NCBI GenBank assembly: GCA_038087875.1
Contig: JAXLNO010003642.1
Span: 186,001-250,000 of the forward strand
DNA from: Malacoraja senta
Taxonomy: Eukaryota
Direction of reading: 5' to 3'
Length of the DNA stretch: 64,000 nt
The notes under the pieces were generated by a model that saw only the letters and a list, made by a program, of their open reading frames with translations, was not told the DNA's origin and searched no databases. The translations under genes were made by a program, and so were the position numbers. Below are positions 33,831-44,374 of this stretch, one piece after another (positions within the stretch are counted from its first letter, which is position 1; the number at the start of each line of letters is the position of its first letter).

Positions 33831-34638
33831 CTGCCTTGGCCGGAGGCCCCCTACATTTCAGGGCCCCAGGCTTCAGCCTATGAAGCCTAGTGGTAAATTC
33901 GGCTCTGCGAGGCCCTCCTAGATCTCCAGGCCATAAGCTGAAGCTTGTCCAGCTTATATGTAAATCCGGCCCTGCCTACCAGATAATGAAATGCCTGGTT
34001 AGTTGATGTGGAATGGAAGTTTTCAGTAATGGGAGAGTCTAGCACAGCCTCACAATAAAAATACCTACCTTCAATATGGAGATGAGGAATTTCTTTAGTC
34101 ACAGGGTGGTGAATCTGTGGAATTCATTGATACAAACAGCTGTGTGCGTCGTCATTGCATATTTTTCAAGCAGAGATTGATAGGTTCTTGATTAGTACGG
34201 GTCACAAAGGTTACAGGGAGAAGGATGGAGAATGGGAGTTAGCAGTAAAAATCGATCTGCCATGACTGAATGGTGGAGTAGACTCAATGGACTTGAAAGG
34301 CATAATTCTGCTCCAATATCTTATGGTCAAAATTATTCTTATGTCACCCTTAACTCACTCATCCAAAATGTAGGAACAATGGAAGCAAGATAGGCTGATC
34401 CTGGACAAGGTCTCTTATCTTCTTCCTTGGGCATTGTAGATGAGATGTGCATGTGCCTTTAACATAGTGACCTCATACCTACTAACCACTCCCCATATCA
34501 CAAGTATAACTACAACCTCCCCACCCACAGATCGTTCTCTAGTTCCTGTGACAGACCACGTACAGCTAGTGCAATGTATAATGATCCAGTATGAATAAAG
34601 ATAGTAAAGTAACGATGCCTGGTTATCAATTCTTTACA

Positions 34639-34670
34639 TGGTGTCAGAAGTGGGATTCGAACCCACGCCT
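34639..34670 (-). other. Extended primer-binding site: 32-nt copy of the 3' end of tRNA-Leu (CAA/CAG type), including CCA
   Basis: TGGTGTCAGAAGTGGGATTCGAACCCACGCCT is the reverse complement of AGGCGTGGGTTCGAATCCCACTTCTGACACCA (T-arm, acceptor stem and CCA). Confidence 0.88.
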
Positions 34671-36667
34671 GGCTTTGGTTACCCAATCATCAGAAGGCAT
34701 TTGACATTCTTAAGTCTAAACTGATCAGCACACCCACGCTCAAGTTCTTTGACCTGCAGCGTCCCATTGTCCTCACCTGCGACGCCTCTCAATTCGGACT
34801 CGGTGCCGCCTGCCTCCAGGTCCATGACGGCCTGCAGCTGCCTGTCTCCTTCGCGTCCCGCACCATGACCGCCACCGAACAGCACTACGCGCAGATTGAG
34901 AAGGAGCTACTGGCCGTGGTGTTTGCCTGCTCCAAATTCCGGGACTACATCGTGGGCAACACTTTCACCGTTGAAACTGACCATCAACCACTTGTTACCA
35001 TGCTCAACAAACCGATCCATGTGGCCTCATCACGTCTGCAGCGCATGCTGCTGCAGCTCCAGCGTTTCACGTTCACGGTGGTTTATCGTAAGGGCAAGGA
35101 CATGTTCGTAGCCGACACGTTGTCTCGCGCCCCGCTGACGTCCACTGCTCGCCACCAATACGAAATGTCTGAGTTACTAGTACTACGATTGAACTTCGTC
35201 CCCTCGCCACAGATGATGTCCCTGGTTGAACACACTACCAACGACCCTGCCCTGCAACAGCTGTCTGCCGTCATCCGGCAGGGCTGGCCTGACCGTCGCT
35301 CGGCTGGAGCCGTGCCCTACTTCCTGATTCGGGACGAGCTCGTACTGCACAACGGCGTGGTGGTGAAGGGTCACAAAGTGGTCGTGCCCGCGGCGCTGCA
35401 CGACCAATATTTTCAAGTCGCACACCGCGGTCACACTGGGGCCGAAGCCACTGTGTCTCTCGCCAAGAGCCAGTTCTATTGGCCGGATATGGCCAAGTAC
35501 ATCCGGGAGAGGGTCTCCTCGTGTTCCACCTGCAACAGCCGCGCCCCCCATCAGCAGCGTCAGCCGCTTCTACAGCAGCCCGCGCCCGGACTGCCCTGGA
35601 TGGCGCTCGCCACAGACATTTTCGAGTGGCGGGGCAAACATTTCCTGGTACTCGTTGACTCCTACTCCAGCTGGTTTGTGGTTGACCGGCTGCCTTCCGT
35701 GACCTCTTCGGCCGTCATCGACAGGTTGTACCCTCACTTTAGCACTTTTGGACCCCCGGCAAGCTTGCAGTCGGACAATGGCAGCCAGTTCACGAGCTCC
35801 GAGTTTAAAGCGTTCGCTTCCAGATGGAACTTTCGCCATTTCACCAGCAGCCCAGAGTACCCGCAAAGCAACGGTTTGGCCGAGCGCACGGTCCGCAGTG
35901 CTAAGCACTTGTTGGAACAGTGTGGTGGCATTAACTCCGACTTCCACCTGGCCCTCCTCAGCCTTCGGAACATTTCCCGCGACTCTGCCATGGGTTCACC
36001 TGCTCAGCGGCTCCTGTCTCGCGCTACCAGGCTCCCGCTCCCTGTGGCCCAGCGCTCCCTCATACCCTCGGTCCTCCCACCTGCGGCGGTTCAGAAACGA
36101 ATTGCCTTCAGGCACGACGTCCAAAAGCGTTCCCATGACAGGTCCTGCCACCCGCTGCCGCCCCTCTTCCCCGGTCAAGTAGTCCGTATGCAGACCACTC
36201 CCGGTCACTCCAAGCTCGCTACTGTCGCCGGCTCTGCGGGGTCGCCCAGGTCCTATTTCGTCGACTACGCTGGGGCCATTTACCGACGGTCCCGCCAGCA
36301 CCTTCGGCTCGTCAACGAGCCGCGTCCTCCTGCCGCCGATCCCTTTGCTCCCCCGCTGCCTGTTTCGCGTCCGGCCATTGCCCTGCCCGTGATTCCTGAC
36401 ATGCCTCGCTCTGCTCCTCCTTCGCCCCTTCCGCTCCATCACACTCCGACTAGTCCTCGCTCGCCCGCCCGCGCTCTTCCCGGTCCCGGCCCCGCATCCC
36501 CTCCGGGTTCGGTGCCGCGGTCTCTTCCGTTTCCTCCCGTTTCTCCCTTTCAGGTTCGTCCTTCCCCGCCGGTGCCTCTTCCTCCTGCAGGAAGGGTGGA
36601 TGGCGAGACGCGGACCCGGGCGGGACGTCTTGTCAAAGCGCCTGACCGCTATGGCGATGTTGCCTAG
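34667..36667 (+). CDS. Gypsy A pol remnant: RT connection, RNase H and integrase with a Pro-rich tail (open frame)
   Basis: AWLWLPNHQKAF...LTCDASQFGLGA...VSFASR...YAQIEKELLAVVF...VETDHQPL; HRGH...C...C zinc finger; ATDIF...QSDNGSQF...SNGLAERTV (DDE). First in-frame ATG at 34865. Confidence 0.9.
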   Translation, partial: AWLWLPNHQKAFDILKSKLISTPTLKFFDLQRPIVLTCDASQFGLGAACLQVHDGLQLPVSFASRTMTATEQHYAQIEKELLAVVFACSKFRDYIVGNTFTVETDHQPLVTMLNKPIHVASSRLQRMLLQLQRFTFTVVYRKGKDMFVADTLSRAPLTSTARHQYEMSELLVLRLNFVPSPQMMSLVEHTTNDPALQQLSAVIRQGWPDRRSAGAVPYFLIRDELVLHNGVVVKGHKVVVPAALHDQYFQVAHRGHTGAEATVSLAKSQFYWPDMAKYIRERVSSCSTCNSRAPHQQRQPLLQQPAPGLPWMALATDIFEWRGKHFLVLVDSYSSWFVVDRLPSVTSSAVIDRLYPHFSTFGPPASLQSDNGSQFTSSEFKAFASRWNFRHFTSSPEYPQSNGLAERTVRSAKHLLEQCGGINSDFHLALLSLRNISRDSAMGSPAQRLLSRATRLPLPVAQRSLIPSVLPPAAVQKRIAFRHDVQKRSHDRSCHPLPPLFPGQVVRMQTTPGHSKLATVAGSAGSPRSYFVDYAGAIYRRSRQHLRLVNEPRPPAADPFAPPLPVSRPAIALPVIPDMPRSAPPSPLPLHHTPTSPRSPARALPGPGPASPPGSVPRSLPFPPVSPFQVRPSPPVPLPPAGRVDGETRTRAGRLVKAPDRYGDVA

Positions 36668-37471
36668 CTATCCTAGCGCATGAGCCGTGGTCGCCATGTC
36701 ACCATTGTATTTGCCTGTCGTTTCGGAGAGGAAGGATGTAGATGAGATGTGCATGTGCCTTTAACATAGTGACCTCATACCTACTAACCACTCCCCATAT
36801 CACAAGTATAACTACAACCTCCTCACCCACAGATCGCTCTCTAGTTCCTGTGACAGACCACGTACAGCTAGTGCAATGTATAATGATCCAGTATGAATAA
36901 AGATAGTAAAGTAACGATGCCTGGTTATCAATTCTTTACAGGCATCTAGTTAATTTTCTGATAGTAGTTAGTTACACAAAAGACCAATAGTGGTGCCATA
37001 TCCGACCCCATTCTCAGTCCGACGTAGCTACACCTGTTGCAAGAGAGCGAGAGCGAGAGAGAGAAAATTAAATTCTCAGTTATCATTGAAATATCAGCAA
37101 AGTTTAAAACCTTTGAAGTTTTATCAACTATAAATGGGTTCACTTATTTGCTATAATAACAATCATCAACATAAGAAAATGGCCTTGTTGACCTCTACAC
37201 TGCAAATAGTCATCTATTTCTGACGTACTTGATTCTTTAAATTCTTAATTAAATGCTGCAGATAAAATCTCAATACCATAATACTAATATGAGCTTAATG
37301 ATTTTTCATTGATCATTTTAAGCACATCCATCCTCTGTATAAATACATAAATCTAAAACTTTATTACTTTTCAATTAGATATGAACAGTGCTAGTTTAAT
37401 TTAGATAATAAAATCATTACAAAGTTGTTATTGATCAATAAATGTTTAAAATGCACTATATATGCCAACAG

Positions 37472-40147: not shown

Positions 40148-42898
40148 TGTAGATGGTTTATGCATGCAACCAATAATATAGCTACCTCAGTACTACTAAC
40201 CACGCCTTAGTTATCAAGTATAAGAACTCTCTGTCCCTCTTGCTCCTCCCTGGTTCAAGCATGATGACAGACTGGGTGCAGTCAGTGCTGGAAAGTGTTT
40301 AACCTGTGTTATCATTAAACGTTAAGTAAAGTTACAAGTGAGTCAGACTTAACATCTTTACATGGTGTCAGCAAGTTAAAACGCGCGCCTCCTGTTTATC
40401 GTTTTTTTATTTCTTTGAAAGTGTTGCTTTATCGGAGTTTTGTACCTTTTGCCATGGCATCCTCGTGCCGCAAACCCTTGCCCCTAGTCTTTGATGCTGA
40501 CATAGCTGAACGCTGGGCGACTTTTGAAATGGACTTCACACATTACATTAATATCGTTCATCGCAACGATCCTGACATTGTTAAAGCTTCTCTCCTACTG
40601 AACCTTGCTAGTCCCGATGCCATGAGGAGAGCACGAGCCTTCGCCTATGATCCCGCGGTCCGGGATGAAAACGATCGGGTTCAAGTACCTATGGAGTCTG
40701 CCAACGATCCGGTATGTCTATTGCGAAAGTTTGCAGAAATTTGCGACTTGCCTGTAACCGCATTTTAGAGCGAGCCAAGTTTTTTACGAGAAAGCAACAG
40801 CCTGATGAACCTGTTGAATGCATTATTGCGGATCTGCGCTATCTCGCCCAGAGGTGTCGATTTGAAAACATGACTGACCAGCTTACCAGGGACATTCTAG
40901 TGACAGGTATGCTGGATCAGAAATTGCGATCGGAGCTATTGAGAAGGCCGGATCTTACTCTGACCGACGCAATGCATGCATGCAGGTTGGCTGAAGTCGT
41001 TGACCCGTTGTTCGGACAAAGGGACGCTGTTGGTCGATCGGTCAAGTTAACTGGTCTCAACAGACCGCGTCCTAAAATAGACAACTCTAGACCCGCGCTG
41101 CGGGCAGGCTACGCCCCGGAGGACGGGTTGCCGTCTGTCGGGCCACCCATGCTTGATGATGGCTGCCAGCTGCAGTGCCTGGTCGAGCACACCGCCGCTG
41201 ACCCTGCTTTGCAGCAGCTGGCAGCCATCATCAAGCGTGGGTGGCCCGACAGACGCACCAATTTGCCATCGGGTGCCCAACCGTTCTTCCTTGTCCGCGA
41301 TGAGCTGGTGATCCAGGATGGGGTTATCGTCAAAGGCCACAAGGTCGTGGTCCCAGCCTCTCTGTATGATCTATACTACAACGCAGCCCACAACGGTCAT
41401 CCTGGGGTCGAGGCCACTGTTTCTCATGCCCAGGGACAATTCTACTGGCCTAGCATGGCCAAATACATCAGGAACCGTGTGTCCTCTTGTGCCTCCTGCA
41501 ACAACCTTACCCCACACCAGCAGCGGCAGCCTCTTTTGCAGCAGCTGGCGCCGGCCATGCCCTGGACATCGCTGGCTGCCGACATATTCGAATGGCGGGG
41601 GAAGCAGTTTCTCATCCTGGTGGACTCATACTCCAACTGGTTCGAGGTGGACCTCCTTCCGTCCGTCACCTCCGGGATGGTCATCGCCAAAATGCGGGAG
41701 CATTTCGCCGCCCACGGTGTCCCTGTCCGTTTGCAGACCGACAATGGACGGCAATTCACAAGTGCCGAATTCAATGCTTTCGCTGCGAGGTGGAACTTCC
41801 ATCACTACACCAGCAGCCCTGAGTACCCTCAGAGTAACGGCCTGGCCGAACGGGCCGTGCGGAGTGCTAAGGGCCTGATGGAGCAGTCCCGCCTGTCTAA
41901 CTGCGATTTCTACCTGGGCTTACTAAACCTACGTAACGTCTCACGGGACCCGGCTATGGGTTCCCCTGCCCAGCGTCTGATGTCAAGGGTTACAAGACCA
42001 CCTATGCCAATCGTCCAGCAGTCCCTGCTACCGAAAGTGCTCAATCCTGCCACTGTCCAACAACGGATCGATCAGAAACATGAAGTTCAACGACGGTCCC
42101 ACGACAGGTCCTGTCGCCCTCTACTGCCTCTACTACCCTGGCAGGTCGTTCGGATGCGGACCACCACCGGCTATTCCCGCCTCGCGACTGTGATTGGTGT
42201 GGACGACTCTCCAAGATCATACCTGGTGGATTACGAGGGGACTGCCTATCGACGGAGCCGTCAACACCTGTTGGCTGTGAACGAGCCGAAGCTTCTTCCT
42301 GCGGCTCCTTATGCTCCTCCGTTGCGGTTCCTACCTGCTGCTGCTGATCGCCCTGCTGCTCCATGCATGCCCCAGTCCCCTCGCTTATTGCGGTCTCCTT
42401 CTCCGTTGCCTCCTGGTTTTGGCCGGGCGGTTTCACCTCCTGCACGTCCTCCCCCTCCTGTCTCTCCCGCTCCGACTGCATCTCCCCCTTCCTTAACATT
42501 CTTGCCTGCCTCCGCTACGCCTTCTCTTCTTTCCGATGGGGGGGGGGAGGTGCTGTACGTATGCGTTTGGGTCGCATTGTTAAGCCGCCTGTCCGCTACG
42601 GCGACTTTGTCTAAACTCGCATGTTTATTGTAATGACACTATCCCAATTGCCTCCGTGTGTATTTGATTGTAAGGGGAAGGATGTAGATGGTTTATGCAT
42701 GCAACCAATAATATAGCTACCTCAGTACCACTAACCACGCCTCAGTTATCAAGTATAAGAACTCTATCTCCCGTGTGCTCCTCCCTTGGTTCCAGCATGA
42801 TGATAGACTGGGTGCAGTCAGTGCTGGAAAGTGTTTAACCTGTCTTATTATTAAACGTAAAGTAAAGCTACAAGTGAGTCAGACTTAGCTCCTTTACA
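40148..42898 (+). mobile_element. Gypsy LTR retrotransposon B, gag fused to integrase (PR/RT/RH deleted)
   Basis: LTRs at 40148-40362 and 42683-42898 (16 substitutions plus 1 indel by eye). Short PBS TGGTGTCAG at 40363. PPT AAGGGGAAGGA at 42672-42682. No matching TSD. Confidence 0.92.
40454..42633 (+). CDS. Gypsy B gag-integrase fusion, with one frameshift near 40750
   Basis: MASSCRKPLPL...W..F...LLNLA, then after a 1-nt shift NRILERAKFFTRKQQPDEP...RCRF...RDILVTG, joined in frame to integrase (HNGH...C..C, AADIF, QTDNGRQF, SNGLAERAV) and a Pro-rich tail. Confidence 0.85.
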
Positions 42899-43085: not shown

Positions 43086-43286
43086 CATAAACGCACCCAA
43101 TATGTGCACATAATGTCCTGTTTGCCAGCTTGTTGACCCTCTGTGTTCCCCTCCTGCAGGGTTTAGGAACCGTTGCTGTGGACGAAGAGACGGGGACGTG
43201 AGCAGCCATTGAGGGTGGCCAGGATGCCGGTGAGCCCCCCCCCAATCTGCTCGGTGTGCGGCTGAGCTTCGAGGGGCTGCACTTCA

Positions 43287-44374
43287 ATGGAGGACCCCAT
43301 GATGGGGCACAATAAGGAGAAGCGTTATGAGTGCGACGTGTGTGGCAAGGCCTGGCAGTGCCCGAGCAAGCTGGAGATCCACCGGCGGGTTCACACTGGA
43401 GGACGCCCCTTCGACTGCTCGGAGTGCGGCAAGAGCTTCAAGACGGCGGTTGTGCTGAAGACCCACTGGCGGGTGCACACGGGCGAGAAGCCCTATGGCT
43501 GCCCTACCTGCGACATGAGCTTTGTCCGGTTGTCGGGGCTACGGCAGCACCGGCGGGTGCACGGCAGTGAGCGGCCATTCACCTGCTCCGACTGCGGCAA
43601 AGACTTCAAGTCGTTACCAGAGCTGAAGCAGCACAGGCGCCTGCACACCGGGCAGCGGCCCTACACCTGCAACGACTGTGGCAAGGGCTTCACCCGCTCC
43701 GGCAACCTGCTGTCCCACCAGCGCACCGACACCGGCGAGCGACCCTACACCTGCACCCAGTGCGGCAAGGGCTTCACTCAGTCCGGTCACCTGCTGTCCC
43801 ACCAGCGGGTGCACACCGGCGAGCGACCCTACACCGGCGCCCAGTGCGGCAAGGGCTTCACCCACCCCTGCAAGCTGCTGTCCCACGAGCGGGTGAACAC
43901 CGGCGACCGTCCAGTCCCCAGCCCGGTGTGTGAGGAACGCTTTGCCATGGCCTTCCACACCCTGTCTCACTAGCACGTGCACACCAGTAGCCAGCCCTAC
44001 GACTGCCCATACTGCGGTGAGGAGTTTGACAGCTCGCGGGGGTTGCGGCAGCACTGGCGGACCCACGCCGGCAAGCAGCTGCTCCCACTGGGACAAGAGA
44101 GCATGGGGGCTGCGGGAGCACCCGCGGATACACACCGGAGAGAGAACCTTTGTGTGCTGAGTTTGGCAAGGGTTTCACCAGCATGTCCAGCCTGTGGCAG
44201 CACCGGCGTACCCACAGCGGTGAGCGTCCCTTCCCCTGCCCGTTCTGTGGTAAGGGCTTCACCTGCCTTGACCACCTGCTGGAGCACCGGCGAGTCCACA
44301 TCGGGCAGCGCCCCTTCACCTGCCCGCTCTGTGGCAAGGCCTTTGCCCGCTCCTCCAGCCTGTCACGTGGATAG
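43287..44374 (+). pseudogene. Kruppel-type C2H2 zinc-finger gene (about 13 fingers), distal fingers decayed
   Basis: Repeated CxxC...H..xH with TGEKP/TGERP linkers. Fingers 1-4 and 6 are intact; finger 5 has H>D, finger 7 C>G and H>N, finger 8 C>S. Stop at 43971-43973 and a frameshift near 44100. A strong acceptor ttcccctcctgcag ends at 43160. Confidence 0.88.

Follow-up and report, generated by a model that had tools for sequence, protein, structure and literature searches.

How does an LTR retrotransposon come to carry a copy of its own primer tRNA joined directly to the interior of its pol gene, and how exceptional is such an element in its genome? The question is raised by one locus in a window of 64,000 nucleotides (the whole stretch of DNA analysed) from the skate Malacoraja senta (assembly GCA_038087875.1, contig JAXLNO010003642.1, positions 186,001 to 250,000 of the forward strand); coordinates below are those of the window. 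The original prediction was that reverse transcriptase (RT) had read through an unmodified A58 of the tRNA-Leu primer, or had copied a tRNA fragment, and had then switched template with loss of everything from gag to RT.

Structure of the element

The element spans 34435-36940 and is a Gypsy LTR element whose LTR pair differs at 2 positions; it is a young, dead retrotransposon copy. Its parts, all on the forward strand, are as follows.

34430..34434: left target-site duplication (TSD), GGCAT; the empty site, with a 5-letter overlap, is present in runs X12 and X13
34435..34638: 5′ LTR, 204 nt, TG...CA, with 2 differences from the 3′ LTR
34639..34670: tRNA-Leu copy, 32 nt, flush with the 5′ LTR end
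34657..34657: position opposite tRNA A58, T in this copy and non-T in 166/477 genomic cores
34668..34670: CCT, found in the tRNA copy and also in the acceptor at the RT/RNase H boundary
34668..36667: pol remnant without gag and without the RT polymerase domain
about 34676-34972: RNase H domain (Pfam)
about 35384-35548: integrase zinc domain, within the pol remnant
about 35615-35863: integrase core, within the pol remnant
36725..36736: polypurine tract
36737..36940: 3′ LTR, 204 nt
36941..36945: right TSD, GGCAT

The 5′ LTR is followed, as predicted, by a perfect complement of the tRNA-Leu 3′ end: comparison of 34639-34670 with the 3′-terminal 32 nt of tRNA-Leu+CCA gives 32/32 identical positions and 0 mismatches. 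Nucleotides 4-32 of the copy, and thus the part beyond the first 18 nt (nt 19-32), are found in host genes for Leu-CAA (L086, intron-containing) and Leu-CAG (L091, L092), 10 matches of the tRNA 5′ half having been inspected; the CCA is absent from the host genes. ARAGORN finds 0 tRNA genes in the window and likewise 0 in L011-L040, because the tRNA copies there are partial. The predicted direct jump into pol is also borne out. The sequence enters in frame at the RT/RNase H boundary, residue 726 of the polyprotein of a longer relative, so that residues 1-725 (gag to RT, approximately 2.2 kb) are missing and the remaining domains are, in order, RNase H and integrase (Pfam).

Integration was normal, with GGCAT on both sides. 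The empty site is seen in contigs of two of the three sequencing runs used (X12 and X13; X14 has no coverage there); runs X1-X11, containing less than one tenth of the sequence words, were left out. None of the listed contig pieces of runs X12-X14 bridges the tRNA-pol junction; the runs therefore back the empty site and the native neighbours, and not the junction itself. Two places in the genome carry the junction, and both represent the same insertion, with common flanks that are 99.3% identical over 3.5 kb. We considered that the junction had been amplified as a non-autonomous family; this is ruled out, since the two places are one insertion.

A GCCT shared by the tRNA copy and the Ala-Trp codons of pol had been proposed as microhomology at the switch. 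The shared bases are present, but the acceptor in the longer relatives supports a shorter match: CCT (3 nt) is found at 6/7 sites, including the four closest relatives (96-97% identical, codons S-W), and GCCT (codons A-W) at 1/7, a 92% copy. The tRNA part ends at nt 29-32, among the group of ends that precede C47d and 3-6 nt short of that base.

Relatives and the native primer site

A search of the genome for the LTR-end pattern gave 10 matches, of which 2 are the window insertion; in the other 8 a short native primer site is succeeded by a spacer, then a CGCCTCC-type box and then gag. The longer relatives are 4.7 kb in length and 92-97% identical to the window copy; Pfam identifies RVT_1, RNase H and integrase domains in a longer relative, and no protease or gag domain. 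Ty3 is the best solved relative of the RT (E 3.5e-65), and the hallmarks of Ty3/Gypsy elements are present, namely an LTR pair with TG...CA ends, a TSD, a primer site and a polypurine tract. The 204-nt LTR, the 5-nt TSD, the 4.7-kb relatives and the Leu primer are Mag-like traits; the table for the Mag lineage in PMC3286476 gives a tRNA-Leu or Ser primer, a 5-nt TSD, LTRs near 200 nt and a length of 4.5-5 kb. The family is thus like this lineage of Ty3/Gypsy in LTR size, TSD, length and primer, which is a resemblance only. Two loci, L052 and L053, are tandem elements with a common middle LTR.

The original prediction took an 18-nt primer site as the baseline, as would an HIV-1-type parent with a site matching the m1A58 stop. 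This does not hold for the family. The exact native match to the primer is 7-10 nt in 6/6 native leaders, including that of a second element in the window, and neither an 18-nt nor a 32-nt primer site occurs in the longer relatives, which have instead a short site and a separate tRNA-matching box. It follows that nt 9-32 of the tRNA copy are foreign to the family. The box lies behind a variable spacer of 13-14 nt, matches the tRNA variable arm and ends at the C47d stop. The predicted duplex between the box and the tRNA variable arm and T stem has an energy of -20.5 to -25 kcal/mol; compared with shuffles, p is 0.002-0.03 in 5/6 leaders and 0.12 in one, for a region picked post hoc. Across many insertions the native copies retain non-tRNA bases at nt 8-9, which would fit a primer site inherited from the element RNA.

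Read-through copies throughout the genome

The read-through copy had been regarded as a rarity, and it proves to be one of several hundred. A 22-nt tRNA-Leu core crossing A58 has 477 exact occurrences in the genome, 311 with T and 166 with another base opposite A58; these counts include at least 3 tRNA genes and contain haplotype and segmental duplicates. An LTR-type CA end precedes the core at 30/30 T loci and at 27/29 distinct non-T loci inspected.

A search for an LTR end plus primer site gave 1,693 sites (reversed control, 13). By hand tally, native short sites account for 69 of the first 100 listed, copies of 17-18 nt for 18 and read-throughs for 8, and 5 are unclear; hence 26 of the first 100 LTR-primer junctions listed are tRNA-templated products, 8 of them past A58. 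This proportion points to faulty plus-strand transfer as a main source of dead, deleted or inverted copies in the clade. A58 was passed by 44 of the first 100 listed among 629 sites with 18 nt of tRNA (hand tally), and this provides an in vivo measure of the leakiness of the A58 stop for a Gypsy RT. Eighty of these 100 sites (at least 18 nt of tRNA) were fetched, repeats of one junction and the last sites of the set being omitted, and 79 could be oriented; their landing sites are scattered across residues 1-1388. In 50/79 copies a second LTR lies no more than 6 kb away; of those 50, 33 have a perfect 5-nt TSD and 41 a TSD matching at 4/5 or better. Since both LTR ends are intact, the product integrates, as the LTR pairs and TSDs attest: mature primer tRNA has been copied past the short primer site, joined internally and integrated with intact ends.

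Acceptors were located for 65/141 junctions. Microhomology of at least 3 nt is found at 24/65 mapped junctions (null 5.5%) and of at least 5 nt at 12/65 (null 0.4%); there is none at 20/65, and the span at rescued ends is 0-9 nt. The read-throughs L033/L135 land on the native box with a 7-nt overlap and keep 4.3 kb of internal sequence, and L011 is another copy with a converted leader.

Copies that end at 18-20 nt are often joined in antisense, 18 of 37 oriented copies compared with 10 of 82 read-throughs (p 4e-5; 4 and 18 copies, respectively, were left unoriented, and the copies are not all independent). A candidate route to the antisense landings is priming on genomic RNA by an 18-nt end that has stalled. 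Recurrent antisense sites after an 18-nt tRNA copy lie near residues 533 (L097, L103, L140), 563 (L116, L160), 647 (L104, L153, L156) and 764 (L128, L175), and certain of these are common to different LTR subfamilies. That 11 copies sharing one antisense junction form a single amplified family is doubtful, because the two members compared have unlike second junctions and the homologous site has also received copies from another LTR subfamily.

When other primer tRNAs were examined for read-through, 34 matches resulted (reversed control, 11), mostly SINE-like or due to chance. Thirty of these loci were inspected: 4 are mutated Leu copies, 2 are possible copies of other tRNAs, and the rest are SINE-like or chance. 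The two possible copies, L228 and L233, have no adjoining similarity to pol; their tRNAs would be of the Leu-AAG/TAG type and the Pro type.

A scan of metagenomes revealed 34 contigs with the pattern of an LTR end followed by tRNA-Leu read-through, with other LTR sequences and many of them redundant; 3 of the 34 have A opposite A58. Many of these contigs (L236-L269) have a variable loop of another sequence, constant among them, that lacks C at 47d.

Errors and stops at tRNA positions

An unmodified A58 or a tRNA fragment had been invoked to explain the read-through. The population makes neither necessary: the base opposite A58 is non-T in 34.8% of cores (166/477), against 1.6% (5/316) at the next position, 59, and in some cases copying reached G37, G26 or the 5′ end of the tRNA. 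With 35% wrong bases opposite A58, it is likely that many of the primers carried the methyl group and were misread. Among the first 100 of these 166, the erroneous base is A in 62, C in 29 and G in 9 (hand tally). Background error at unselected positions is 0-3% at non-CpG and, in the larger sample, up to 6% at CpG positions.

Fifty-eight copies were taken without regard to length: 33 of them stop at nt 32-35, preceding C47d (nt 36), 13 stop at nt 46-50, no further than G37 (nt 50), and 1 stops at nt 60, preceding G26 (nt 61). We inspected all 77 matches crossing the variable loop. With one gene and one duplicate taken out, and a few near-duplicates still included, the 75 copies have opposite C47d G in 18, A in 47, T in 7 and C in 3, the neighbouring positions being constant in 75/75 and 74/75. 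G37 is misread in 5/6 copies that cross it (one scored by eye). The intron of the Leu-CAA gene is missing from 6/6 of these, and the template was therefore mature, spliced tRNA. No link between errors at A58 and 47d was seen, a 47d error occurring in 36/49 T copies and 21/26 non-T copies.

The modifications m1A58, m3C47d, m1G37 and m2,2G26 are known RT-blocking marks (PMC11417395, PMC8062790, PMC4787781). Judged by position, the stops and errors likely mark these same four modifications on the primer. Since ends fall before C47d, G37 and G26 and misreading occurs at C47d and G37, tRNA modifications are likely preserved in the genome as a fossil map. Zebrafish m3C47d, in the account given in PMC11417395, is described for Leu-CAG and Ser and not for Leu-CAA. 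Position 47d is C in all three complete Leu-CAA genes found; because these are the only three, an unassembled Leu-CAA gene with U at 47d is conceivable, and it could explain the A calls and would weaken the m3C47d assignment.

One product, L095 1441-1527 (G000:C4936), is a whole spliced tRNA-Leu(CAA)+CCA of 87 nt that follows an LTR-type end and is fused to integrase. It has no error at 58, 47d, 37 or 26, and ARAGORN calls it as a tRNA gene; no second LTR lies within the stretch fetched. One locus, L016 (= L178), has A opposite the wobble position C34 and errors at 47d and 37 and ends before G26, a single case.

The window copy itself carries no modification signature, because it has T opposite A58 and ends before C47d. 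Its primer may or may not have been methylated. That this particular primer lacked methylation at A58, or was a fragment from the tRNA 3′ end that stopped within the variable arm, we regard as possible though doubtful. The T opposite A58, shared by 65% of cores, would suit an unmodified template; L095, free of error at all four positions, indicates that hypomodified primers exist; and in HIV-1 loss of m1A58 permits extension, according to PMC8599865. However, at least 35% of read-throughs have an A58 error, so methylated templates were passed, and the A58 and 47d errors look independent. Nor would a fragment primer explain why copies end in steps ahead of three more modified positions and carry errors at them.

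Mechanism

In our judgement the window copy very probably arose by read-through of the tRNA-Leu primer past A58, followed by a CCT-mediated jump to the start of RNase H. While making the first plus-strand DNA, the RT would have copied about 32 letters of the tRNA-Leu primer, beyond A58; the free plus-strand end would then have paired through CCT with minus-strand DNA at the start of RNase H, whereby 2.2 kb were lost. More generally, plus-strand DNA extending 18 nt or more into the tRNA would find no matching landing site, because the native site is 7-10 nt long and full annealing would be impossible. Such a product would normally be a dead end, as in yeast Ty3, and the stalled ends would often be rescued by microhomology of 0-9 nt on a minus strand that was probably incomplete or folded back. 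A caveat to the jump is that the 3 nt of microhomology in the window copy arise by chance in about 5.5% of simulated joins.

Could the junction have formed in two steps, with a full-length copy gaining a tRNA-converted leader by way of the native box and then losing gag to RT through an ordinary deletion? Converted leaders are known (L011 and L033/L135), but they are few among the 100 read-through copies listed. Other deletions begin exactly at the end of the tRNA match and cluster at modified positions, whereas an ordinary deletion could begin anywhere in the leader or gag, and we hold the two-step route to be improbable. We give still less credence to a reverse-transcribed tRNA inserted after integration and causing the deletion, a route proposed for tRNA-Gly in HIV-infected clones in PMC12220202. 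It predicts other tRNAs and other positions, and the general search described above found mostly SINE-like or chance matches; here hundreds of copies contain the element's own primer tRNA, in the register and orientation of the primer site and directly abutting the LTR end. An assembly artefact, a coincidental match or a long primer site native to the family can practically be dismissed, given the junction on two contigs, a perfect TSD, the empty site in other runs, the 32/32 match and native relatives that differ.

Read-through of the primer followed by an internal jump is also part of a broader reading, which we favour with some reserve. In effect, the Gypsy clade would write a germ-line tRNA-sequencing library into the genome of its host. 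About a quarter of insertions would be rescued dead-end strong-stop DNAs, and several hundred would preserve a record of where the RT stopped or misread, at m1A58, m3C47d (including on tRNA-Leu-CAA), m1G37 and m2,2G26; LTR divergence would date them. The conserved box would have two roles, as a variable-arm anchor whose end coincides with the m3C47d stop and as a landing pad, and the same route would yield whole intronless tRNA retrocopies.

Comparison with known systems

The mechanism is already known from retroviruses. Hardy et al. 2025 (PMC12657518) report 44 defective HIV-1 proviruses in which the deletion junction contains an additional 7-54 nt of tRNA-Lys3, the base at position 58 being altered in 5/44. 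The deferred second-strand transfer described there resembles the window copy in that tRNA past A58 defines the deletion junction, the LTRs are intact and the product is integrated. The HIV-1 cases, as presented in PMC12657518, have a native 18-nt primer site and are 44 somatic events from one cohort plus GenBank, whereas the skate Gypsy family has a 7-10 nt site, germ-line copies in the hundreds and a ladder of stops and errors at four tRNA positions.

In Ty1 and Ty3, according to PMC5371799 and PMC7472051, the plus-strand product that extends into the tRNA leads nowhere, and it is the element RNA that supplies the primer site. The skate family likewise has a short primer site, and it would resemble these elements further if its site is bipartite, if the primer-site sequence is not tRNA-derived and if the first plus-strand product is discarded. 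In yeast, copying ends after 12 nt of tRNAi-Met (PMC5371799, PMC7472051); the Gypsy family studied here, in contrast, stops at 18, approximately 35, approximately 49 or approximately 60 nt and often integrates after a microhomology jump.

Lentiviral primer over-extension, the sequence of which is summarised in PMC13191261, is similar in that the element has, 3′ of its primer site, sequence in agreement with the tRNA as far as a second stop (PMC13191261, PMC8599865); Fukuda et al. 2021 (PMC8599865) describe a second stop at U54. Likewise, a few over-extended skate copies reach the native box, and their internal region is then retained in full (L033/L135). Unlike the lentiviral arrangement, the box here lies behind its spacer and is not adjacent, it matches the variable arm, and most over-extended copies miss it. 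Over-extended products are unable to integrate according to PMC8599865 and are a rare HIV defect according to PMC12657518.

The pattern of RT stops and mixed bases at m1A58, m3C47d, m1G37 and m2,2G26 is that of misincorporation tRNA sequencing, as described for mim-tRNAseq (PMC8062790), tRAM-seq (PMC11417395) and the m1A signature (PMC4787781). The difference is that the present library was made in vivo by a retrotransposon RT, is fixed in the genome, has been filtered by integration and spans evolutionary time. Germ-line tRNA modification and the use of primer isodecoders may thus be read from assemblies alone, in species without tRNA data and across insertion ages.

The single window locus is ordinary in its genome; it is the population that is of interest. 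What is new is the scale of the phenomenon in a Gypsy clade with a short primer site, together with a modification ladder fixed in the genome, and for LTR retrotransposons a search of the open-access literature turned up no genome-wide description of such copies in a germ line. An early parallel is reportedly the work of Pulsinelli and Temin in 1991 on spleen necrosis virus vectors, in which deletions resulted from faulty termination of plus-strand strong-stop DNA. These are said to start, as here, in the primer-site region after a faulty plus-strand stop and transfer; they reportedly differ in belonging to a single-round vector experiment with a retrovirus.

Fold-backs and the second element of the window

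Two read-through copies (L298, L306) stop near nt 49, after which the sequence turns onto the opposite strand of the tRNA copy, a fold-back. The window contains a second Gypsy element, of a sister family, at 40148-42898, with LTRs that are 92% alike, a TSD matching at 3/5 positions, and a native 9-nt primer site plus box at 40363. It has an internal deletion from approximately residue 176 to 907 and, at the join, a 124-nt self-inverted stretch (41132-41255) that looks like the outcome of a fold-back during reverse transcription. Adjoining this element, at 43266-44343, is a broken C2H2 zinc-finger array with 84-nt repeats.
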